From an uncultured bacterium (GTDB lineage Bacteria; Acidobacteriota; Thermoanaerobaculia; Multivoradales; JAHZIX01), in assembly GCA_965368975.1 (NCBI GenBank), contig CBDUPA010000012.1:96001-160000 (forward strand): a stretch of 64,000 bases of DNA. The letters are read 5' to 3'. The number at the start of each line of letters is the position of its first letter. The stretch's first letter is position 1. The position numbers were made by a program, and so were the translations under genes. A model generated the notes under the pieces. The model saw nothing but the letters and a program-made list of their open reading frames with translations. It ran no database searches and had not been told where the DNA came from. Positions 710 through 12,702 of the stretch are shown here, one piece after another.

Positions 710-2814
710 ACCAACCTCCTGCTCGTTTCCCGCGTCGACGTCTTGCCACCTTCTTTCTCGGCCGCCGCGGTGCCGTGCTGCCGGTCTTGTGGGTCGCTGT
801 CGTGGCCACCTTGTTGGCCCCTTCCTGGGCGACCGGATCGGCGCTGGCGCAGGACGAGCTGTCTCGCGACGAGTTGCCCGCGCAGCCACCCGTGCCGCAC
901 GACGAGATCGAAATCTTCGAACTGCACGAGGCGCGCGCCGGCCAGACGGGCTACGGCCTGTCCGTCTTCCAGGGGCGTGAGCCGCAGCGCTTCGAGGTCG
1001 AAGTGATTGGCGTCATGGAAGACTCGTCCGGCCTCGGCGACGCCATCCTGGCGCACCTCAAGGGGCAGGGCCTGGAAGAGAGCGGCGTGCTCGGCGGCAT
1101 GAGCGGCAGCCCGGTGTACATCGAGGGTCGCCTGGCCGGTGCCGTCGCCTTCAGCTGGAATTTCAGCCGCGGCGCCATCGCCGGCATCACGCCGATCCGC
1201 GACATGCGCCGCTTGCGTGTCGAGCCGGTCGCGGAAGTACCCGCGGGCGAGATGGCGAGGTCGGACGCCTCGGTCTCGTCCTCAATCTCCACGACCACCC
1301 GGGAGGGCGCCGTGCCCGTTCCCAGCCTCGACGACCTGCTGCACCGGCGCTTCGACCAAGACCTGCTGCAGCAGCACCTCGCCGCGCTACGCCCGCCGAC
1401 AGTGAGGGGTGGTGGTGGTCCCGAGGCGGCGACGTCCAACGTTCAGTGGCTGGCCAGCGGCTTCAGTGACGGCGGCCGCCAGCTGCTGCGCTCGGCCCTC
1501 GGGCCCGTCACCTTTGGCGCGCCGATCCAGGAGCGGACCAGCGGCGCGGGACTGTTGGAAAGGGGGACACTGCTGGATCGTGGCGGCGACGATGGTGTCT
1601 CCGGCCTGCCCAGCGCGCGTCCGAACGCCCCCGATCTGACCGCGCTCTACGAGCCCGACTTCACCGACGTTGCCAAGCCGGGCGGTGCGGTGATGGCGGC
1701 ACTGGTCTTTGGCGACCTCAAGCTCGCCGCCGCTGGCACCGTCACCGACGTCCAGGGCAACGACGTGGTCGCCTTCGGCCATCCCTTCCTGGGCGCCGGC
1801 CCGGTGCGCCTGCCGATGGCTTCGGCCGACATCGTCACCACCGTCTCCAGCATCTTCAGCTCGTTCAAGGTCTCCAACATCGGCCGATTGGTCGGTACCG
1901 TGTGGCAGGACCGCTCCGCAGGCATCTACGGCCGCTTGGGCGAGGCGCCGCCGATCCTGCCTTTGACGGTGCGCTTGCATCCATCGGCCGGGCCGGGTGC
2001 TGACAGTGCGGAGGTCTACCAGATGTACCTGGCCGAAGCGCGCGACATCACGCCCGCTCTGCTCGGCACCGCCGCCGTCAGCATTCTCGACGTTGCCAGC
2101 CCGCGCCTGGGCGCCGGCAGCGTCGACCTGCGCGCCCGCTTCCAGATCGCTGGCCACGACGAACTGATCGTCGAGCAGAGCTTCGACGCGCCGCAGGCTG
2201 GCGTGCAAGCGATCATCACGACGCTCAGCTACGCCGCCTTCCTGATGCAGACACCGCAGGCGCCGCTCGACCTCGAAGCCATCGAGCTGGATTTCACCCT
2301 GCACCCGCGCCGCCGGCTGCAGACCCTGGTCGATGCCCACCCGCTGCGCACCGTCGTCAAGCCCGGCGAGCGTCTGCCGGTATTCCTCGAACTCGAGTCC
2401 TACACCGGCGGTCGCCAGCGTCGCACCGTCGAGGTGCCGCTACCCGAGCATCTCGACGACGGTACCTACGTGCTGCTGGTCGCCGACGGTGCCAGCGCCG
2501 ATGCGCTGCGCCTGGCGGTCGAGCCGCAAGACCCGACGTCGATCGACGACAGTCTGGCGATGCTGCGCGGCTTCCACTCCAACCGTGAAGTGCACGTCCT
2601 CGGCCTGGTGCCCGACCGCGGCCTGGTGCTCGGCGGCCAGGCCTTGCCGCGCGTGCCGGCGTCGATGCAGACCGTCTGGGGCCAGGCGCCGCCCGGCAGC
2701 ACGCAGCCGCTCAATCTGGCGCTGGTCGACGAGACCAGCTGGACCTGGGACGAACCCGTCGCCGGCCTCGTTCGCATCGATTTGACGGTTCGCCGAGGAA
2801 CCGGCCGTCGATGA
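706..2814 (+). CDS. SpoIVB peptidase S55 domain protein, exported
   Basis: Signal-like N-terminus; GMSGSPVYIEGRLAGAV and GTVT...AFGHPF motifs typical of S55 proteins; 4-nt overlaps with both neighbours. Confidence 0.8.
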   Translation: MNQPPARFPRRRLATFFLGRRGAVLPVLWVAVVATLLAPSWATGSALAQDELSRDELPAQPPVPHDEIEIFELHEARAGQTGYGLSVFQGREPQRFEVEVIGVMEDSSGLGDAILAHLKGQGLEESGVLGGMSGSPVYIEGRLAGAVAFSWNFSRGAIAGITPIRDMRRLRVEPVAEVPAGEMARSDASVSSSISTTTREGAVPVPSLDDLLHRRFDQDLLQQHLAALRPPTVRGGGGPEAATSNVQWLASGFSDGGRQLLRSALGPVTFGAPIQERTSGAGLLERGTLLDRGGDDGVSGLPSARPNAPDLTALYEPDFTDVAKPGGAVMAALVFGDLKLAAAGTVTDVQGNDVVAFGHPFLGAGPVRLPMASADIVTTVSSIFSSFKVSNIGRLVGTVWQDRSAGIYGRLGEAPPILPLTVRLHPSAGPGADSAEVYQMYLAEARDITPALLGTAAVSILDVASPRLGAGSVDLRARFQIAGHDELIVEQSFDAPQAGVQAIITTLSYAAFLMQTPQAPLDLEAIELDFTLHPRRRLQTLVDAHPLRTVVKPGERLPVFLELESYTGGRQRRTVEVPLPEHLDDGTYVLLVADGASADALRLAVEPQDPTSIDDSLAMLRGFHSNREVHVLGLVPDRGLVLGGQALPRVPASMQTVWGQAPPGSTQPLNLALVDETSWTWDEPVAGLVRIDLTVRRGTGRR

Positions 2815-5210
2815 TGTCGCCGCCGATGACACTTCTTCTTTCCACCTCGACCTCGAAGCCACGGAGACCGCTCGCCGCCATGACCCACTCCCCGCGTCCC
2901 CGCCCTGCGCGCCGCGCCTCACTGGCGCCGCTCACCGCCGCTCCGCTCACGGCTGCTCTGCTCACGACCGCCTTGCTGCTGTCTCCGGCCCTGGCACCGC
3001 CCGCGAGCGCCACCGAGGTCAAGATCTTCCGCACCGCCGACCGCGCCGGCTTCCTGGCTGGTGAGCTCGACGGCGTCAGCCTCGATCAGCTCGGCCGCCT
3101 GCGCCTGGCGGATCGCATCGAGCGCGTCAGCACCGTCGAGGAACCGTACCTGTACGCCGCCGCGGACTATCCGTCCGAGGATGGCGGCGGCTGGGTCGTC
3201 GGCACCGGTAGCGCCGGGCGTGTGTACCACGTGCGCCAGGACGGCACCTCCTCGCTGCTGTTCGAGGTCGCTGAGCCGCAGGTGCTGAGCGTGCTCAGCC
3301 ACGGCGGCGCCGTCTACGTCGGCACCGGTCCGACCCCCGGCGCCGAGGCCACCGGCAAGGTCTACCGCTACACGCCGCCAGCGTCCGGCAGCGACGAAGC
3401 GACGCTCGAAGTCTTGTTCGACAGCGGCGAGACCTATGTTTGGGCGCTGGCCATGCTGAGCGATGGTCGCCTGGCGGTCGGCACCGGTACGCAGGGCAAG
3501 CTGTTCGCCCTCGACCTGAAGCAGGATCTGGCCGAGCAGGAAGCCACCCTGCTGCACGACTCCACGGACATCCACATCCGCAGCCTGCTGGCGCTTCCCG
3601 AGGACGGCGACTTCGGTGGTGGCCTGCTCGCCGGCACCGCTGGCGAAGGCCTGCTGCTACACGTCGCCGCCAACGGCACCACGCGCACGCTCTACGACGC
3701 GGCGCAGCCCGAGATCACCGCGCTGACCGCCGGCCCGGACGCTAGCGGCTCCGGCGTGCGCGCGTATGCCGCCGCCATCGCCTCTGAAGCCTCCGGCGTC
3801 GACCTCGCACGCCGCGCCGCCCAGCAACAGCAGCAGCAAAGCCAGGAAGACCCGAGCAACGGCGACTCGCAGGCCGAGCTCGTCGCCCCGACACCCGACG
3901 GCACCGTCGGCTCGCGTCCCGGCAATTTCCGCGGCGGTCGCAGTGAGATCCTCACCATCGCCGCCGATGGCGTCGTCGAGAGCCTGTGGACGTTCCAGGA
4001 ACAGACCGTCTTCAGCCTGCTCTACCTGGATGACCGCCTGTGGCTCGGCACCGGCGTCGAGGGCGAGCTGTTCAGCTTCCGCGGCGGCGACATGGTGGTC
4101 GAGAAGCAGAGCGAGGAGCGGCAGGTGATGGCGCTGCTGGCGAGCGAAGACGGCCCCGTCCTGGCCACCACCAACGGCGCCGCCGTCTACCGCGCCAGCG
4201 GTGGTCGAGAATCGGCGGGCATCTACACCAGCAGCGTCTACGATGCCGAGGCCGTTTCGCGCTTCGGCAGCTTCCGCTGGTACGGCTCGCAGGCCGAGAA
4301 GGCTGCCAGCTTCTCCTTCCGCTCCGGCCTCTCCGCCTTCCCGGACGCCACCTGGTCCGACTGGACCGCACCCAAGAACGGCCACGAGATCGCCCTCGAC
4401 ACCCTGCCTGCCGGCCGCTACGTGCAGTGGCGCGCCGAGCTGAAGAATGGCGACGTGAGCCCGCGTCTCGACGCCGTCGAGCTGAGCTACCGGCAGCGCA
4501 ACGCCAAGCCGCGCATCCACGAGCTGAGCGTCCTGGAACCGGGGCAGATCCTGGTCCCCAGCACCTTCAACCCCAACGGCCAGACGTTCGAACCCGCGCA
4601 CCCCAACCGCGATGGCATCTTCACCACCCTGCAGCCTGCCGCGCGCGAGGATGCCCGCCTCAAGACGCTGTGGAAGCTTGGCTACCGCTCGCTGTCCTGG
4701 AAGACCGAAGATCCCAACCAGGACGACCTCGAGTACACGCTGTCGTTCCAGCGCCAAGCGGACGTGGCGCCGGCAGACGACTGGTTGCCGATGGTCGAGA
4801 AGCTCGACGACGACCACCTCAGCTTCGACGCCACCGTGCTGCCCGATGGCATCTACCGTTTCCGTCTCGAAGCCAGCGATGCCGAGGCCAACCTGCCCGG
4901 CGAAGGCCAGAGCGCCGAGCGCGTCAGTGAGCCGGTGGTGATCGACCACAGTGTGCCGGTGCTGGTCAAAGCCGAGCGCCAGGGCAGTACCCTGCAGGTC
5001 GAAGTGCGCGACGCCTGGAACCCCCTGCGCGAAGTCGTCTACAGCGTCGATGCCGGCGAATGGCAACGCGCTCCCACCGCCGATGCCCTGGTCGACGGTC
5101 GGCGCGAAGTGCTGCAGATTCCGATCCCCGAAGGCGCCAAGCTGCTGATCCTGCGCTGCACCGACGCTGCCCACAACGTCATTACCTTCGACTTGTCCGG
5201 AGAGCTGTGA
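2811..5210 (+). CDS. Exported beta-propeller/Ig-like protein
   Basis: Signal peptide; repeated blade-like motifs (VVGTGSAGRVY, YVGTGP..GKVY, AVGTGTQGKLF, LAGTAGEGLLL); C-terminal DGIYRFRLEASD FN3-like segment. Confidence 0.65.
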   Translation: MMSPPMTLLLSTSTSKPRRPLAAMTHSPRPRPARRASLAPLTAAPLTAALLTTALLLSPALAPPASATEVKIFRTADRAGFLAGELDGVSLDQLGRLRLADRIERVSTVEEPYLYAAADYPSEDGGGWVVGTGSAGRVYHVRQDGTSSLLFEVAEPQVLSVLSHGGAVYVGTGPTPGAEATGKVYRYTPPASGSDEATLEVLFDSGETYVWALAMLSDGRLAVGTGTQGKLFALDLKQDLAEQEATLLHDSTDIHIRSLLALPEDGDFGGGLLAGTAGEGLLLHVAANGTTRTLYDAAQPEITALTAGPDASGSGVRAYAAAIASEASGVDLARRAAQQQQQQSQEDPSNGDSQAELVAPTPDGTVGSRPGNFRGGRSEILTIAADGVVESLWTFQEQTVFSLLYLDDRLWLGTGVEGELFSFRGGDMVVEKQSEERQVMALLASEDGPVLATTNGAAVYRASGGRESAGIYTSSVYDAEAVSRFGSFRWYGSQAEKAASFSFRSGLSAFPDATWSDWTAPKNGHEIALDTLPAGRYVQWRAELKNGDVSPRLDAVELSYRQRNAKPRIHELSVLEPGQILVPSTFNPNGQTFEPAHPNRDGIFTTLQPAAREDARLKTLWKLGYRSLSWKTEDPNQDDLEYTLSFQRQADVAPADDWLPMVEKLDDDHLSFDATVLPDGIYRFRLEASDAEANLPGEGQSAERVSEPVVIDHSVPVLVKAERQGSTLQVEVRDAWNPLREVVYSVDAGEWQRAPTADALVDGRREVLQIPIPEGAKLLILRCTDAAHNVITFDLSGEL

Positions 5211-8109: not shown

Positions 8110-9420
8110 TCAGAGCCGCCAGTAGAGGTGGTAGACGGGGAAGGGACGGCCGCCGGCTCGCTCGGCGCGCAGGACCTCGTGCAGCACCAGGCGGAGGTCC
8201 TGCAGCGTGAGATGTCCGCCAGAGGCTTGATTGCCGAACAGGCGTAGGGCGAGGGCGGCTTGGGGGCTGCACGTGAGATGGTCGGCGAGGGCGGCGATAC
8301 GACGTGCCAGGTCGAGGTCGACAGCTTGCTCGCCTTGGTGCCCCGCCCTGGCATCGGCCTTGCGGCTCAGCTTGCGGCCGGTCTTGCGAGCGGGTGCCAG
8401 TCGCAGCTGCAAGCCGTGGCTGAGAACGAGGACCGCTTCCAGCGCTCGACGGACCTGGACGAATTCGTCAGCCAGGTCGATCCAGGGGCGCGGGTCGGTG
8501 GCGTCGTCGACGTCGAGATCCCGGCCAGCGAAAGGGGAGCGCACGCCCAGGTCGTCGCCGTGCAGCAGGCACAGCCAGCGCAGGTGCGGCGGTGACGTGT
8601 CGAAGCCGGCGGTGTCGGCGGCACGCAGGCCTTCTTCGATCACTTCGCGGGCCCGCTCCCGGTGGCCGTGGTAGAGCAAGGCTCGTGCGGCCGCGGCGTG
8701 GGCGCTGTCGTCGACCAGGGACGGGGCGCTCAGGGCTTCCAGGTCACGCAGTAGGTTCCGCCGGCGCAGGCGATCTTGCCGCAGGTCGAGCATCATGCGT
8801 CCGAACAGTGCGCTGTGCCGCAGCGGGAAGGGGTCGGGCAGGCTGGCGGCAGGGTCGGAGTCTTCGGCTCTCCCCGTAAGCGCTATGGGTAGCCGGAAGG
8901 CCAGGTCGACGGCGGTCTCGACGTGGTCACGGGCGGCCGGCAGGTAGCCTTGCCAGCTGTTGTAACTGGCCAGGGCCCAGTGGATCAGCGTGCGGGTCGC
9001 GGGGTGCAGGGGCTGCTGGTCGGTGCTCAGGTCGAGCGCTTGGTGCAGTCGTCGATAGCCTTGGAGATGGTAGCCGGTGTAGCTGAGGAAGCGGCCCAAC
9101 TGGGCCAGTGCCAGCGCGTGCAGTTCGCGCGCGTCGCCGGCGAAGTGACGCGTCTGCCGCAGCTGCGCCGTGATCTCGACGGCAAGCCGGGTCAGCTGCG
9201 ACGCCGCGGCGGGGCTCTCGCGCACCACGGCCTCGGCGGCGGTGAACAGCATCGCGACGCTGCCGCTGGTGTGGTAACGGCTGTCCTTGCGTACGATGTC
9301 CACGCGCCGCTGGGGCGTCTCGCGCAGCAACCGGGCGAGCAGCGGCCGCACCTCGGCGATTTCGGGGCGTTGTAGGAGTTCTTGCAGGCTGGGTTCTTTG
9401 GATCTGCTGTCCTGAGGCAT
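8110..9420 (-). CDS. TPR-like all-helical protein (divergent paralog-like of 11164..12441)
   Basis: Long ORF with GAGGAG RBS; Ala/Leu-rich helical repeats (ELHALALAQLGRFL..., ALALRLF) loosely matching the downstream TPR protein. Confidence 0.55.
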   Translation of the reverse strand: MPQDSRSKEPSLQELLQRPEIAEVRPLLARLLRETPQRRVDIVRKDSRYHTSGSVAMLFTAAEAVVRESPAAASQLTRLAVEITAQLRQTRHFAGDARELHALALAQLGRFLSYTGYHLQGYRRLHQALDLSTDQQPLHPATRTLIHWALASYNSWQGYLPAARDHVETAVDLAFRLPIALTGRAEDSDPAASLPDPFPLRHSALFGRMMLDLRQDRLRRRNLLRDLEALSAPSLVDDSAHAAAARALLYHGHRERAREVIEEGLRAADTAGFDTSPPHLRWLCLLHGDDLGVRSPFAGRDLDVDDATDPRPWIDLADEFVQVRRALEAVLVLSHGLQLRLAPARKTGRKLSRKADARAGHQGEQAVDLDLARRIAALADHLTCSPQAALALRLFGNQASGGHLTLQDLRLVLHEVLRAERAGGRPFPVYHLYWRL

Positions 9421-9620: not shown

Positions 9621-10169
9621 CTACAGGGCTTCCGGCAGCGCGAGGCTGCGATCGACCCCCTCGAGACCAGCGGCCAGGTCGAGATCGAGACCGGTGACGC
9701 CGCGGCGCACAGCTGGGCTCGCCACCTCGACGCGGAGGCTCGGGCCGTCGATGCTCAGCCGCGGTGGGTGACGCAGCTTGCGAGCCACCGCGGCGATGGC
9801 GTTGGCGAAGGCGCAGGCGGCGGTGAAGTCCGGGAAGCGGTACTGCTTCTGCAACCCGCGTTCGCCTTCCTGCCAGCCCGGCAGGCGCTGTAGTTCGAGC
9901 GCCAGCTGCGCCGTCTCGACTTCGCCGACCTTGGTGTGCCCGGTACGGCTGGCTGTGGACAGTCGGCTGCAGCCACCGGTGGCGTCGACGGTGGTGCTGT
10001 CGGCTTGCCGCTCCGCATCGCTACCGATGCGTTCTGCTTTGAGCTTGTCGACGCTGCCGAGGCTTTCGATAGGGGGGCCTACACGCGCGGAGTCTGCGCT
10101 CGGGGAGCCCGCGCCGCGGCGAGTGTCGGTCGAGCGAGGGGAGCGTTGTCGTGCATGGGTTTTACTCAT
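9621..10169 (-). CDS. Pterin-4-alpha-carbinolamine dehydratase (PCD/DCoH)-like protein with degenerate active site
   Basis: LPGWQ...LQKQYRFPDFTAACAFANAIA...GVTGLDLDLA matches the PCD fold; canonical HHP and TH motifs are replaced (RHPP, ASP); start chosen at the ATG with AAGGA RBS. Confidence 0.7.
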   Translation of the reverse strand: MSKTHARQRSPRSTDTRRGAGSPSADSARVGPPIESLGSVDKLKAERIGSDAERQADSTTVDATGGCSRLSTASRTGHTKVGEVETAQLALELQRLPGWQEGERGLQKQYRFPDFTAACAFANAIAAVARKLRHPPRLSIDGPSLRVEVASPAVRRGVTGLDLDLAAGLEGVDRSLALPEAL

Positions 10170-10791
10170 GGTCGTGTCATCCTTGATGAAGTGGGTTCGA
10201 GGTGAGTTTCGGCGGTAGCGCGCATGAATTCCTGCTGCAATCTCCTTGGATTCGCGCTCATTGCAATGAAATTCATGCGCGATCTGGGGGCAGCTTAGGG
10301 ATGCGATGCTGGCTTTGTCAAGTCTTAGGCAACGCAAAGGCATAGATTTTTATGCGGCTGATGCCGATCTGGACTGGAGGAAGCGTGTTCAGGCGAGTTC
10401 CGAAGGGCACGGCGAATCGCACCTCGGCAAGGAGGTGGGGAGGGAGCGGTCTGGGTACTGCAGAGTTGCCTCAGATCAAAGGGAATATTTCTTCTGCAAG
10501 ATCAAATGTTCGCAGGAAGGGGGGGTGGCCCTGGGTTGTCGCCGCTGTGCGAGAGGCGTAGGATGGCCGTTTCGAGAAGCTGAGGAAGGGCGTAAGTAGT
10601 GCTAGAGGAACGAGTTGCGGGAGGAGGTCTACCGTCTCGGTGGCTGCTGGAGCAGCCCGCAAGAACGCCTGCGATAGTCTCTCTGGAGGCGACGGCTTGC
10701 TGAATGGGGCAAGTCGGCCTGAGTGTCTATATACATCTCAGTGGTATCCGTCATGAGGGCGGTGCCAAACATGGTGAAAAGGAGATGCGAA

Positions 10792-10890
10792 ATGCTGAAG
10801 TATGGTGAGGCGAAGAAGGCTGTCTACAGAGGATCGCTTATCGACCCGATCGGGTTTGATAGAGGGTCATTGATCGATCCCATCGGATAG
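10792..10890 (+). CDS. Unannotated 32-aa peptide MLKYGEAKKAVYRGSLIDPIGFDRGSLIDPIG
   Basis: AAGGAG RBS at 10779-10784; two identical RGSLIDPIG units encoded with several synonymous differences; hairpin downstream; below the ORF-track length cutoff. Confidence 0.75.
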   Translation: MLKYGEAKKAVYRGSLIDPIGFDRGSLIDPIG

Positions 10891-10953
10891 CCCCGCTGTC
10901 TCGGTCCTTCCGAGTCTAAACTGCTGAATCCCCCCCATCGTACTTCCCCATAT

Positions 10954-10978
10954 GGCCCCGGGTGGCAGGCCCGGGGCC
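10954..10978 (+). terminator. GC-rich stem-loop after the peptide gene
   Basis: GGCCCCGGG-tggcagg-CCCGGGGCC, perfect 9-bp stem, no clear U-tract. Confidence 0.45.
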
Positions 10979-11163
10979 TCGACTTGCGTCAGTTACCGAC
11001 CTCGACTACACTTTCGTCGATCCAGTAATATCTTTCCCGCAACCGGCTTGAATTCTGTCTTTCATGGATCACCGAATACTGGAAACGCCCGTGCGCTGTG
11101 ATCCGCAGGGCGACTGTTGACGCATTGGCACCATGCTACAGTGACCTAGGAGGACGAGACACC

Positions 11164-12441
11164 ATGACGGCATCCCATCCGGAACCGCTGCCGCTGACCT
11201 TGATTGCCGAGTATCTTGACGGATCCGCCGACGCCAACTCATTCTGGGACGATTGGGTGTCGGTTCTGCTGGAGAACCCGCGGTTCGCGGCCAGTTTCCA
11301 CCGCCTCTTGGGGCTGAGCGAAGAGTTCAGCTTGCCGCAGCTGAGCCGGGTCGCCTACGAGGGCCCGGAGGCACGCGAGCTATTGCAGCGTCTGCGCTGC
11401 TTGCCGCCAGCGAGGCAGTGGCGCGAGGCACGCAATGCCAGTTGGGTGGTCAATTGGTGTTTGGTGCGCCTCTTGCTGCGAGAGAATCTCCGCATCACTC
11501 CGCAGGACGTGCACGAGGGCGGCCGCCTGGCGCGTTTGGCCCTGATGCTGGTGCGACGCTTGCCGGCTGCAGTCTACGGCACTGAGCGCTTGGCCGAACT
11601 GAGGGCACTGGCCTGGGCCAATCTGGCCAATGTCTATCGCGTGCGCGGTGATCTCAAGCAGGCCGACGCTCTCATGCAGCGTGCACTGCGTCGCCTCGGA
11701 GGAGAGCCGCTGCAAGAGCCCGGTCTGCGAGCGGATCTGCACCTGATTCAGGGTTCCATGCTCTACGATCAGCGGCAACTCGGTGCCGCCCGGATGGCCT
11801 TCGAGCAAGGCTTGAATCTCTGTCAGCACCCGCTTCGGCAAGAAACGGCCGCTATGCTTCAGATGCGGCTGGCCGCTCTGGACTACGAGGTGGCACACCT
11901 AGACAGTGCAATTGAGAGGACCGAGGCGGCCCTACGACTCATCGGCAAGTCTGGGGCTACGCGGCTCTTTGTGCAAGCGAGCTTCAATCTTGCGGATCTG
12001 TTTGCCCGAGCGGGCCGCTTCGACGAGGCGATGGCGCAGCTGTCTCAGCATCGGCAAGCCCTGCAAGTCTATGGGACGCCGAGTGATCAGTGCCGCGCCA
12101 ACTGGTGCGAGGGGATCATCCACCAGGGGCTTGGCGAATTTGGCGCGGCAGTGAAATGCTACGCGCGCGCAAAAAAAGCTTTCCTTTCTCTGGATTTGTG
12201 GTACGATGCAGCCATTGTCACGCTGGAGTTGGCTAGCTTACTGCTCGAACACGGCAAAACAGCTGAAGTCAAGCAACTAGCGCTCGACACGCACAAGCTC
12301 TTTGAAATCCAGGACGTCGACCGCGAAGCTCTTGCAGCGCTAGAGCTCTTCCGCGAGGCAGCGACGCAGGAAGCCTTGTCGATCGAGATGCTGCAACGCA
12401 TCGAAGCCGACTTCCGGCAAGCCTGCCGTGTCTCCGCTTAG
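11164..12441 (+). CDS. Tetratricopeptide-repeat protein
   Basis: AGGAGG RBS before ATG 11164; TPR-like helices (ALAWANLANVYRVRGDLKQAD, SFNLADLFARAGRFDEA, GIIHQGLGEFGAAVKCYARA); no signal peptide. Confidence 0.75.
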   Translation: MTASHPEPLPLTLIAEYLDGSADANSFWDDWVSVLLENPRFAASFHRLLGLSEEFSLPQLSRVAYEGPEARELLQRLRCLPPARQWREARNASWVVNWCLVRLLLRENLRITPQDVHEGGRLARLALMLVRRLPAAVYGTERLAELRALAWANLANVYRVRGDLKQADALMQRALRRLGGEPLQEPGLRADLHLIQGSMLYDQRQLGAARMAFEQGLNLCQHPLRQETAAMLQMRLAALDYEVAHLDSAIERTEAALRLIGKSGATRLFVQASFNLADLFARAGRFDEAMAQLSQHRQALQVYGTPSDQCRANWCEGIIHQGLGEFGAAVKCYARAKKAFLSLDLWYDAAIVTLELASLLLEHGKTAEVKQLALDTHKLFEIQDVDREALAALELFREAATQEALSIEMLQRIEADFRQACRVSA

Positions 12442-12567
12442 GCCTTGCGCCTGGGCGTTGGAGATCGCCGCGACATTTCTGGATATCTACACTTGGTGCA
12501 CCAGCCTGGCGACCATCAGTAGCCTGATGGCCATCCTTCTGGTAGCTGGAACCTAAGAAATCGAGTT

Positions 12568-12646
12568 GGCCGGTGTAGGCGAACGGTCGGAGTTAAACCA
12601 GACTTCCGCCAAGTTTCCCGTTCGTCTACACCGGCCTTTAGTTTTT
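12568..12646 (+). terminator. Long inverted repeat with T-rich tail between convergent genes
   Basis: GGCCGGTGTAGGCGAACGG (12568-12586) pairs with CCGTTCGTCTACACCGGCC (12618-12636), one G-U pair; followed by TTTAGTTTTT. Confidence 0.6.
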
Positions 12647-12702
12647 GGGGCCTCGAGTTCTTAGGGCCCTCGGCTATTGAGCCCTTCAGTTCTGGGGAGA
12701 GC

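Follow-up and report, generated by a model that had tools for sequence, protein, structure and literature searches.

A micro-ORF with a duplicated peptide unit

The window analyzed here is a 64,000-nt stretch of DNA from an uncultured bacterium of the Acidobacteriota (Thermoanaerobaculia; Multivoradales; JAHZIX01), namely C12:96001-160000 (contig CBDUPA010000012.1, forward strand) of the 7.13-Mb, 59-contig assembly GCA_965368975.1, whose G+C content is 65.4%. Within it lies a very short open reading frame (micro-ORF) that encodes the peptide RGSLIDPIG twice, and 274 nt downstream of it begins the gene for a soluble tetratricopeptide repeat (TPR) protein (Table 1). The start codon, ATG at 10792, and the stop codon, TAG at 10888-10890, were established by direct reading and from the ORF list. 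A first-pass annotation of the sequence had drawn attention to the duplication, and its codons, its coordinates and the repeat itself proved exact: the two units differ at 7 nucleotides in six of nine codons, with two of the differences in the CTT/TTG pair, and every change is synonymous. The sequence also bears out the AAGGAG box proposed for the ATG and the remark that the second copy ends at the stop codon. Comparable GGAG or GAGG boxes precede most of the likely starts of the paralogous peptide ORFs described below.

Table 1. Features of the window (positions counted from its first nucleotide) and of the 18-unit locus L112 on contig C7 (positions within G000:C7:250500-257000)
Feature	Position	Strand	Details
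Micro-ORF, IDPxG small-protein family, leaderless, two-unit	10792..10890	+	32 codons + TAG, product MLKYGEAKKAVYRGSLIDPIGFDRGSLIDPIG
Shine-Dalgarno-like AAGGAG	10779..10784	+	read directly, 7 nt 5' of micro-ORF ATG
Unit 1, RGSLIDPIG	10828..10854	+	AGA GGA TCG CTT ATC GAC CCG ATC GGG
Unit 2, RGSLIDPIG, abuts stop codon	10861..10887	+	AGA GGG TCA TTG ATC GAT CCC ATC GGA
Hairpin, perfect 10-bp G+C stem, 5-nt loop	10954..10978	+	GGCCCCGGGU / GCCCGGGGCC, no U-tail
AGGAGG	11148..11153	+	direct reading, 10 nt 5' of TPR gene ATG
425-aa soluble TPR protein, likely partner/receptor	11164..12441	+	Pfam TPR, AlphaFold2 (AF2), Foldseek
436-aa remote member of the window's TPR family	8110..9420	-	hhalign against A1, family profile
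L112, 18-unit ORF, 199 aa	4170-4769	-
L112, second small ORF, 68 aa	3892-4098	-	ending ...AAIDPDG-stop
L112, 469-aa TPR family member	2486-3895	+	convergent with both peptide ORFs

An RGSLIDPIG unit offers 7.2 synonymous sites and 19.8 non-synonymous sites. When 7 random substitutions were placed in copy 1, the peptide remained unchanged in a fraction 3e-5 of 200,000 simulations; with divergence that is synonymous only (P about 3e-5), the duplication of RGSLIDPIG is real and far beyond chance. The micro-ORF is very probably a real coding gene, belonging to a family of small proteins that we name after the IDPxG core of the repeated unit. Compared with most of its relatives it is an atypical, minimal member, with 32 aa, two units and no signal peptide. 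It lacks a hydrophobic N-terminus (the maximum Kyte-Doolittle mean over 12 residues is 0.61) and a tryptophan-containing helix, and inspection of the plus-strand ORFs between 10300 and 10800 revealed no remnant of a leader upstream.

Paralogous cassettes in the same genome

The window TPR gene has 13 paralogs in its own genome by tblastn, and most of them are adjoined by a small ORF with the pattern [ILVM]DP.G near its end. Examples are (RSAMIDPNG)x4-stop on contig C23, (RGAALDPNG)x3-SP-stop on C6, ...KGVYIDPIGNS-stop on C2, ...ERGSVIDPNGAVPP-stop on C26 and ...GPTLDPNG-stop on C21. To put a number on this association we used the motif [ILVMFYW]DP.G: genome-wide, 116 six-frame ORFs end no more than 15 residues past it, and nine such terminal-motif ORFs lie on the same strand within 1.5 kb upstream of a TPR gene, at eight of the 14 loci, where 0.18 would be expected (Poisson P 5e-13). 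A profile search raised the number of full-length family loci in this genome to about 19, some 14 or 15 of which, by our own tally, have a motif peptide within 2 kb, in some cases convergent with the TPR gene. The search for xIDPxG-stop across the genome and related metagenome-assembled genomes (MAGs), which the first-pass annotation had proposed as a check, was thus positive.

An extreme array is found on contig C7 at locus L112, where a 199-aa ORF contains 18 units of the form x-S-x-x-I-D-P-[ND]-G plus one degenerate unit. Next to it are a second small motif ORF and a TPR gene whose match to the family profile is secure (hhalign 98.5%, E 1.5e-15). The 27-nt units of the 18-unit ORF have a mean identity of only 64%, their invariant D, P and G are written with two, three and four different codons respectively, and Tandem Repeats Finder sees just 3.1 copies at the DNA level. 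This is the signature of the window copy at a larger scale, with the peptide kept and the DNA drifting. Contiguous arrays of 9-mers also occur on C23 (four units) and C6 (three units). The earlier proposal of a multi-core precursor under selection at the peptide level is therefore strongly supported, as between one and 18 units with diverged codons recur in paralogous and orthologous small ORFs.

A single complete three-gene cassette was found in this genome, on C2, where the peptide ORF (252706-253008) is followed by a Sigma70_r2 ORF (253128-253322, E 8e-13) and a TPR gene (253822-254979). The peptides of C2 and of the window share the core IDPIG, and their TPR proteins are 28.8% identical, as against 31-33% for others; since the two are not the most alike, there is no simple co-clustering of peptide and receptor by the residue at +3. 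Of the two paralogs closest to the window TPR gene, the one at G000:C44:5124-6413 has an in-frame TAA and no motif peptide nearby, and is possibly a pseudogene.

Architecture of the unit and its precursors

From 63 non-redundant precursors we obtained a unit logo of [DK]-E-G-x-[ST]-I-D-P-[ND]-G, in which G at -3 is present in 77% and I in 72%, while D, P and G are at 100% by construction of the search. Thirty of the precursors have one unit, 25 have two, seven have three and one has five. The unit is usually at, or within two residues of, the C-terminus: its final G is followed by the stop codon 33 times, by one or two residues and then the stop 22 times, and by further sequence 51 times. The IDPxG small proteins are a large undescribed family of the Thermoanaerobaculia, with one to 18 copies of a unit of 9-10 residues ending in [I/L/M]-D-P-[N/D/I]-G.

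The typical member is longer than the window peptide and looks exported. A hydrophobic N-terminus preceded by K or R was present in 48 of 52 precursors of at least 40 aa (Kyte-Doolittle mean over 12 residues of at least 2.0; this is our own hydrophobicity criterion and not a trained predictor), and a tryptophan lies no more than 30 residues before the first unit in 42 of 60. The 29 canonical members that could be aligned share the order signal-like segment, variable stretch, helix of the LWxxLxxLW type, unit, Pro/Gly/Thr-rich linker and last unit. Cysteines stand on both sides of a unit in four of 60 precursors. Such units (for example G-C-R-IDPDG-R-C) were seen in P0022, P0143, L011:724-1053, L047:1238-1540 and L102:1565-1882, and forms with C-x-IDPxG-x-C units are among the eight profile-matched representatives that were inspected. 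This arrangement suggests disulfide-closed loops presenting the DPNG turn, as would be expected of extracellular peptides.

Leaderless members are not confined to the window. Others occur on C6, C27 and C21 of the same genome and at loci L026-L028. Three genomes from another family of the order encode peptides of 32-50 aa with a ...SLMIDPIG unit, each convergent to a TPR gene; in two of these the unit is C-terminal, the third having it six residues ahead of the stop. In a comparison of two of the species, pN/pS is 0.076/0.35 for the final 17 codons of this leaderless peptide and 0.47/0.65 for the first 33. The unit is thus under purifying selection at the peptide level, and it is multiplied within precursors.

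Upstream of 11 orthologous cassettes from different MAGs (L053, L081, L082, L088, L089, L092, L095, L096, L105, L106 and L110), about 55-100 nt before the precursor start, we noticed a block of AGCGC-N16-GCAACCTT followed some 16 nt on by (G)CTCCGCCGGC; it is absent upstream of the window micro-ORF. The element GCAACCTT resembles the -35 boxes of extracytoplasmic function (ECF) sigma factors, and the block is a candidate promoter or operator. Generic ECF-like dyads showed no enrichment upstream of 70 precursor genes, and a separate dyad count picked up only the block conserved within this single orthologous group. At least 11 species have one cassette in common.

Family size and taxonomic range

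Among 41 genomes of the order, the window's own included, 33 contain matches to the window TPR protein at E up to 1e-10, with up to 43 in one genome, and in some genomes the cassettes are clustered in arrays. Almost all the named records retrieved with a family alignment are MAGs labelled "Thermoanaerobaculia bacterium" or "Acidobacteriota bacterium"; the exceptions are a Holophagales record and one labelled "Deltaproteobacteria". A total of 80 MAG loci was collected, six of which were dropped as their upstream DNA was missing. A locus was scored as paired if a same-strand ORF with the motif within 25 residues of its end stopped in the interval from -900 to +150 nt relative to the estimated start of the TPR gene, and an upstream peptide was found in this way at 42 of the 74 usable loci. 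Most of 30 additional loci from relatives have an upstream peptide as well.

Neither Pfam nor NCBIfam has a family for the window peptide or for eight canonical precursors, and protein atlas clusters that hold one precursor are labelled "hypothetical protein", Acidobacteriota. When the 29 aligned members were used as a profile, the matching representatives of 50%-identity clusters numbered 2,692 with E up to 1e-3, or 426 with the limit set at 1e-10; almost all have a length of 74-170 aa. A word-based homolog search with one canonical precursor returned just two proteins and is uninformative. The precursor profile A3 gave no matches at E up to 1e-5 in six-frame translations of 201 genomes of the phylum, a sample with few genomes from the families in which the TPR gene is expanded. 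As A3 fails even in the window's own genome, it evidently misses short, divergent forms. It did find precursors in all five of five chosen relatives (17, 26, 12, 1 and 4 matches, at E up to 1e-3 and with more candidates scored).

No ortholog of the window TPR gene itself was found in 40 relatives, where the best TPR matches are about 25-36% identical, and a metagenome scan with the window TPR protein gave 81 pattern matches, none of them a relative by tblastn.

The likely TPR partner and its possible link to sigma factors

The window TPR protein matches Pfam TPR_MalT (9.6e-12) and several other TPR families. Its AF2 model is confident (mean predicted local distance difference test score, pLDDT, 85; predicted template modeling score, pTM, 0.81) and shows an all-helical solenoid from about residue 57 to 425, with residues 1-55 poorly defined. 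Foldseek matched this model to TPRs that bind peptides or proteins (those of TSK, LGN/Pins and BtubC), to Rap proteins and to MalT domain III (E 4e-6 to 1e-4); the Rap matches are RapH 3q15_B and Rap 8rst_A/4gyo_A/6t46_E (E 8.5e-6 to 7e-5), some with bound pheromone. Against PDB sequences, the best matches of the family profile were kinesin light chain and the OGT TPRs. These model and profile matches would point to a TPR scaffold that binds extended peptides, and to no more than that. In alignment A1 the polar residues R159 and Q203 are invariant and N156, R205 and N275 nearly so. Inspection of A1 showed no signal peptide or membrane segment in the TPR proteins, and Pfam and NCBIfam gave neither a helix-turn-helix (HTH) family nor a Rap, NprR or PlcR family.

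The N-terminal region is more informative in the relatives. Their first 50 residues or so contain H6, H31, C35 and C38, invariant in 12 of 12 aligned N-termini (H ... H-x3-C-x2-C). A profile of this region, A4, matches the anti-sigma factor ChrR (2q1z_B, E 6.6e-4) with the four invariant residues aligned to those of ChrR, presumably its zinc ligands; a match to the anti-sigma factor DdvA (8rlz_A, E 0.35) is weak. Five of the 14 own-genome paralogs have H-x3-C-x2-C, which is absent in the two nearest to the window protein, C1:309606 and C44. The N-terminal 55 or so residues of the window protein do align with the anti-sigma domain of the relatives. Judging by these alignments, the partner in this family is probably best described as a soluble protein that joins an anti-sigma domain to a TPR domain.

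A link to sigma factors is also visible in the gene neighbourhoods. Using all-versus-all clustering of the ORFs of at least 90 aa at 109 loci, with flanks of 1.5-2 kb, we found that the sole recurrent neighbour, besides the TPR gene and shadow frames, is a sigma-like ORF placed between the peptide and the TPR gene. This cluster has 47 ORFs in 32 of the 109 loci; two of the three members scanned matched Sigma70_r2, one of these also weakly matching r4_2. By counts that are approximate, since they depend on short overlapping matches, 18 loci have both a peptide and a sigma-like ORF, 39 a peptide only and 14 a sigma-like ORF only. At L036, L048, L049, L051, L064 and L067 two or three tandem sigma-like ORFs also lie just downstream of the TPR gene, besides the upstream one. 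The genetic linkage of the small proteins to this TPR family with an anti-sigma-like domain is close and statistically strong.

Proposed function of the small proteins

We propose that the small protein is a multi-copy pro-peptide whose units would be released, or exposed as a free C-terminus, and would bind the TPR domain of the neighbouring regulator. Binding of the unit might then shift the hold of the regulator's N-terminal domain on a sigma factor, so that peptide level would be read out as transcription. The steps of processing, binding and sigma factor control are ones that we infer. The signal-peptide-like N-terminus of the typical members would make the peptide an extracellular, autoinducer-like signal that must re-enter the cell. 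TPR domains are established as recognizing C-terminal peptides, and a C-terminal motif beside a TPR protein fits this well. With a selected and multiplied unit, a preference for a free C-terminus and linkage to a TPR family all to be accounted for, a ligand mechanism is the simplest that joins the three. We would give about even chances to the statement as a whole, that this is a multi-copy pro-peptide family whose units are ligands of the adjacent TPR anti-sigma-like regulators, and chances even or slightly below even to the specific claim that the unit, as ligand of the adjacent regulator, controls a sigma-binding N-terminal domain.

The first-pass annotation had suggested a short signal peptide, possibly cut at Arg. 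The idea of a signal has gained a context in the linkage of the unit to a family of TPR regulators, with release and binding remaining putative. Cleavage at Arg is plausible only for the tandem 9-mers of the window's own genome, which mostly begin with R or K, while most units of the relatives begin with [DK]-E-G; perhaps cleavage takes place after G and before R/K or D/K-E-G.

Several observations weigh against the ligand proposal. The I-D-P-N-G core is near-invariant across up to about 40 paralogous cassettes per genome, leaving few variable positions for pair-specific channels, and such a motif could serve a shared processing, export or chemical step instead of receptor binding. As the precursors look exported and the TPR protein is soluble, binding requires re-import across two membranes, for which we know of no documented case in this group of bacteria. 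The unit is also found outside the small precursors: in P0122, a protein of 783 aa, dozens of x-x-DP[ND]G-[RK] units are combined with a signal-like N-terminus, a C-terminal domain and another domain of about 200 aa, which is hardly a precursor setting. The pairing is incomplete, as 32 of the 74 MAG loci show no upstream motif ORF by the criteria applied and 38 of the 109 clustered loci have, by the same approximate counts, neither a peptide nor a sigma-like ORF. The anti-sigma assignment found little echo in Pfam, where zf-HC2 matched one of 10 N-terminal fragments with 16.5 bits, short of the 22.2 cut-off, and did not match the window fragment. Finally, the window pair is atypical, with a leaderless peptide, a partner without H-x3-C-x2-C and no sigma gene on the contig: Sigma70_r2 has 37 matches in the genome at E up to 0.01, none of them on the 247-kb contig C12. 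With no leader, no zinc site and no sigma gene, the window copy would need another export route or would have to act inside the cell. A complex prediction for the window TPR protein (A1) and the 32-aa peptide, run without controls, gave scores of 0.15 and 0.08 (mark 0.32) and speaks neither for nor against binding.

Alternative explanations

The small secreted proteins might instead be the regulated output of the sigma/anti-sigma-like module (for example a surface, adhesive, metal-binding or antimicrobial peptide), co-located by co-regulation and never touching the TPR protein. ECF modules commonly adjoin the genes they control, typical members look exported while the TPR protein looks cytoplasmic, and an invariant core across paralogs fits a common physico-chemical role; the Cys-flanked units of four of 60 precursors, and those of P0022 and P0143, resemble secreted disulfide-looped peptides. 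We nevertheless think it unlikely, as the pairing persists without a sigma gene (the 39 loci with only peptide and TPR protein), holds in both upstream and convergent orientations, and extends to leaderless peptides of 25-50 aa. To have dozens of such pairs in a genome is, moreover, typical of cognate pairs and not of one effector type.

The re-import problem disappears if the full-length small protein binds the TPR regulator in the cytoplasm before export, or permanently if it is leaderless, so that the balance of synthesis and export regulates. The anti-sigma factor FlgM offers an analogy for regulation coupled to export. This would accommodate the leaderless members (the window, C6 and C27 of the same genome, L026-L028), and an unprocessed tail could well be recognized through a unit whose place at the C-terminus is conserved. 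It is hard, however, to reconcile Cys-flanked units and arrays of as many as 18 units with a 1:1 partner, and we hold this version to be quite improbable.

We give equally little credence to a structural role, in which the units would not be separate peptides and would serve as strand-turn modules in a beta-roll or beta-meander fold, perhaps one that binds calcium, in analogy to RTX proteins. Contiguous 9-mers do occur in the genome, D-P-N-G is a strong turn former, a protein of 783 aa contains dozens of units, and AF2 puts a short strand before every DPNG of the 18-unit protein, although that model, made from a single sequence, is of low confidence (mean pLDDT 40.5, pTM 0.19). Most members are of another kind: 55 of 63 have just one or two units, and the variable Pro/Gly/Thr-rich linkers between units cannot build a solenoid. 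The unit departs from the RTX consensus, GGxGxDxUx, and a structural role would leave the linkage to a TPR regulator unexplained.

Multi-core precursors with a conserved leader-like, Trp-rich helix are typical of ribosomally synthesized and post-translationally modified peptides (RiPPs), and a RiPP-like product had been suggested at the outset; the units would then be cores, and the TPR protein a scaffold or regulator of the pathway. The neighbourhoods tell against it, as the clusters at the 109 loci consist of the TPR protein, shadow frames, the sigma-like ORF and lineage-specific neighbours, and only the TPR protein and the ECF sigma-like ORF recur, with no modifying enzyme. Scanning of neighbours identified an AMP-binding enzyme and a PilZ protein and left four ORFs without a Pfam match at E up to 0.01. 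Among the clusters scanned there was no radical-SAM, YcaO, lanthionine, ATP-grasp or peptidase family within the 1.5-2 kb flanks, beyond which such enzymes may lie; all told, a RiPP pathway appears highly improbable.

Least probable of all is that the family alone is functional and the window copy a decaying, inactive relic of a longer precursor. In favour of a relic are the absence of a signal-like N-terminus and of a Trp helix in that copy, the loss of zinc ligands by its partner, the reduced G+C around the cassette (55-60%, the genome being at 65%) and the failure to find a close ortholog of its TPR gene in the 40 relatives or the metagenome scan. Against it, the two units of the window copy have diverged synonymously only, a good AAGGAG precedes its ATG, the ORF list shows no leader remnant in the upstream frames, the TPR gene is intact and its product folds confidently in AF2, and other leaderless members have been kept between species with purifying selection on the unit.

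Returning to the proposal that the units are ligands of the TPR regulators, a more far-reaching form of it would be a peptide-pheromone network, new to description, in the diderm Thermoanaerobaculia: exported pro-peptides would give rise to re-entering IDPNG-type peptides that gate TPR anti-sigma factors and free ECF sigma factors. We consider this form rather doubtful. If true, it would be a functional counterpart of Rap-Phr and RRNPP signalling with an independent origin outside the Bacillota and up to about 40 cassettes per genome, and it would add peptide ligands as a fourth mode of control of soluble anti-sigma factors; the leaderless two-unit gene of the window would then be a derived member.

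Comparison with known systems

The closest parallel is found in the RRNPP systems (Rap/Phr, NprR/NprX, PlcR/PapR, PrgX, AimR/AimP, Rgg/SHP). As there, a small gene for a putative pro-peptide adjoins that of a soluble TPR protein, the presumed receptor, with about 400-450 aa, the presumed active part is at the C-terminus of the pro-peptide, exported and leaderless forms both exist, many paralogous cassettes occur in a genome, and the window TPR fold resembles Rap proteins solved with their pheromones (Foldseek). Adjacency and the C-terminal unit hold for the family as a whole, while the signal-like N-terminus is absent in the window peptide. The differences are equally clear. The phylum here is diderm, the place of an HTH or Rap-type bundle as effector is taken by a domain that appears to be a ChrR-like anti-sigma domain, and the peptide core is a nearly invariant IDPNG, often repeated two to 18 times, whose binding is putative. 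The peptide gene is upstream or convergent, not downstream, a further point that counts against a ligand role. The IDPxG/TPR cassettes are thus RRNPP-like in gene pairing, receptor fold class and C-terminal signal, and are not RRNPP members, since they have no HTH or Rap-type effector domain and no sequence homology and come from another phylum. By this analogy, the proposed logic would in effect be RRNPP signalling with an ECF sigma factor, in place of DNA binding, as its output. PMC10075063 describes RRNPP as two adjacent genes and a feature of the Bacillota, and the RRNPP literature consulted treats peptide signals sensed by cytoplasmic TPR receptors as a hallmark of that phylum and its phages.

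The TPR proteins can also be compared with zinc anti-sigma factors of the ChrR and RsrA/RshA type. They are likewise soluble, the N-terminal domain of the relatives matches ChrR with an invariant H and H-x3-C-x2-C, and a Sigma70_r2 gene is adjacent at part of the loci. The sensor, in contrast, comprises some 350 residues of TPR solenoid and is linked to a small protein encoded alongside, and the window copy has neither the zinc ligands nor a sigma gene on its contig. For soluble anti-sigma factors, the part of PMC8999054 available to us gives redox or conformational change, partner switching and mechanosensing as the known controls, and mentions none exerted via a peptide ligand. TPRs figure in ECF systems only as C-terminal extensions of ECF42 sigma factors in the portions consulted of a paper classifying ECFs (PMC7826278) and a review of their non-canonical regulation (PMC8999054). 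There, as here, the repeats are the regulatory module of an ECF system, but in ECF42 they are fused to the sigma factor itself without an anti-sigma factor, whereas here they are fused to an anti-sigma-like domain.

Other likenesses are more limited. Cyanobactin-type RiPPs and the yeast alpha-factor are made from multi-core or polyprotein precursors, which also have several copies of a short peptide per product, with the peptide kept while the DNA drifts; unlike them, our cassettes showed no modifying or dedicated processing enzyme beside them, and have no known recognition sequences flanking the units. C-terminal sensing is known from the TPR "carboxylate clamp" (Hop-EEVD, PEX5-SKL) and from outer membrane protein C-termini that activate DegS in the sigma-E pathway. 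The IDPxG systems share with these a conserved motif right at the C-terminus (in 33 of 63 precursors the stop codon directly follows the final G), a TPR protein and an ECF-type pathway, but the sequences, topology and domain types differ. RTX nonapeptide repeats share the 9-residue period, Asp and Gly, and tandem arrays in a few members; their consensus is unmatched, and most IDPxG members have one or two linker-separated units.

Literature searches turned up no account of IDPNG-type peptides, nor of anti-sigma-TPR fusions encoded together with peptides, although supplementary tables, such as those of the ECF classification, may list such groups. None of the texts containing "IDPNG" was bacterial by title, and searches for Thermoanaerobaculia with sigma factor and peptide, or for zf-HC2 with TPR and anti-sigma, returned nothing. 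The novelty is one of combination, peptide/TPR signalling and anti-sigma control each being of a known kind.

The Acidobacteriota are a poorly known phylum of soils and sediments with almost no cultured members, and the family is large: its sequence clusters number 2,692 or more, and a single genome can contain dozens of cassettes. Should the peptides be ligands, they would constitute a simple two- or three-gene signalling module in diderm bacteria, a new type of input for ECF sigma factors and a reason for so many TPR paralogs per genome. Even if they are outputs only, this is a small-protein family without a Pfam or NCBIfam model, next to a regulator that matches generic TPR models only. Genes of 32 codons are easily overlooked by annotation, and [ILM]DP[ND]G at a stop codon beside a TPR gene can be used as a search key for annotating such micro-ORFs.

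Other features of the locus

The hairpin lies 64 nt past the stop codon of the micro-ORF, ahead of the TPR gene. It is kept in both the minimum free energy and the centroid fold, while the z-score of the whole region is merely -1.3. A scan of 10250-11250 for sigma-70 promoters and terminators did not call it and found nothing on the plus strand, and Rfam gave no match at E up to 1 in 10200-11300. The hairpin is possibly an intercistronic stabiliser or attenuator.

The micro-ORF is flanked by two members of the TPR family on opposite strands. The remote member, the ORF at 8110-9420, has no Pfam family above threshold; hhalign aligns it with A1 over residues 22-292 (probability 96.5%, E 7e-10), and the family profile also matches this gene region (C12:104899-105363, E 6e-13). 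Between it and the micro-ORF, the minus-strand ORF at 9621-10343 has a pterin-4a-carbinolamine dehydratase domain limited to residues 143-228 of 240; the N-terminal part of 140 residues is without any match, and the real start is perhaps later. G+C content falls to 55-60% over the 2.7 kb from 10000 to 12700, compared with about 68-72% in the flanks. This dip takes in the TPR gene as well as the micro-ORF and the long spacer that precedes it, and could mark a segment that is evolving fast or was recently acquired.

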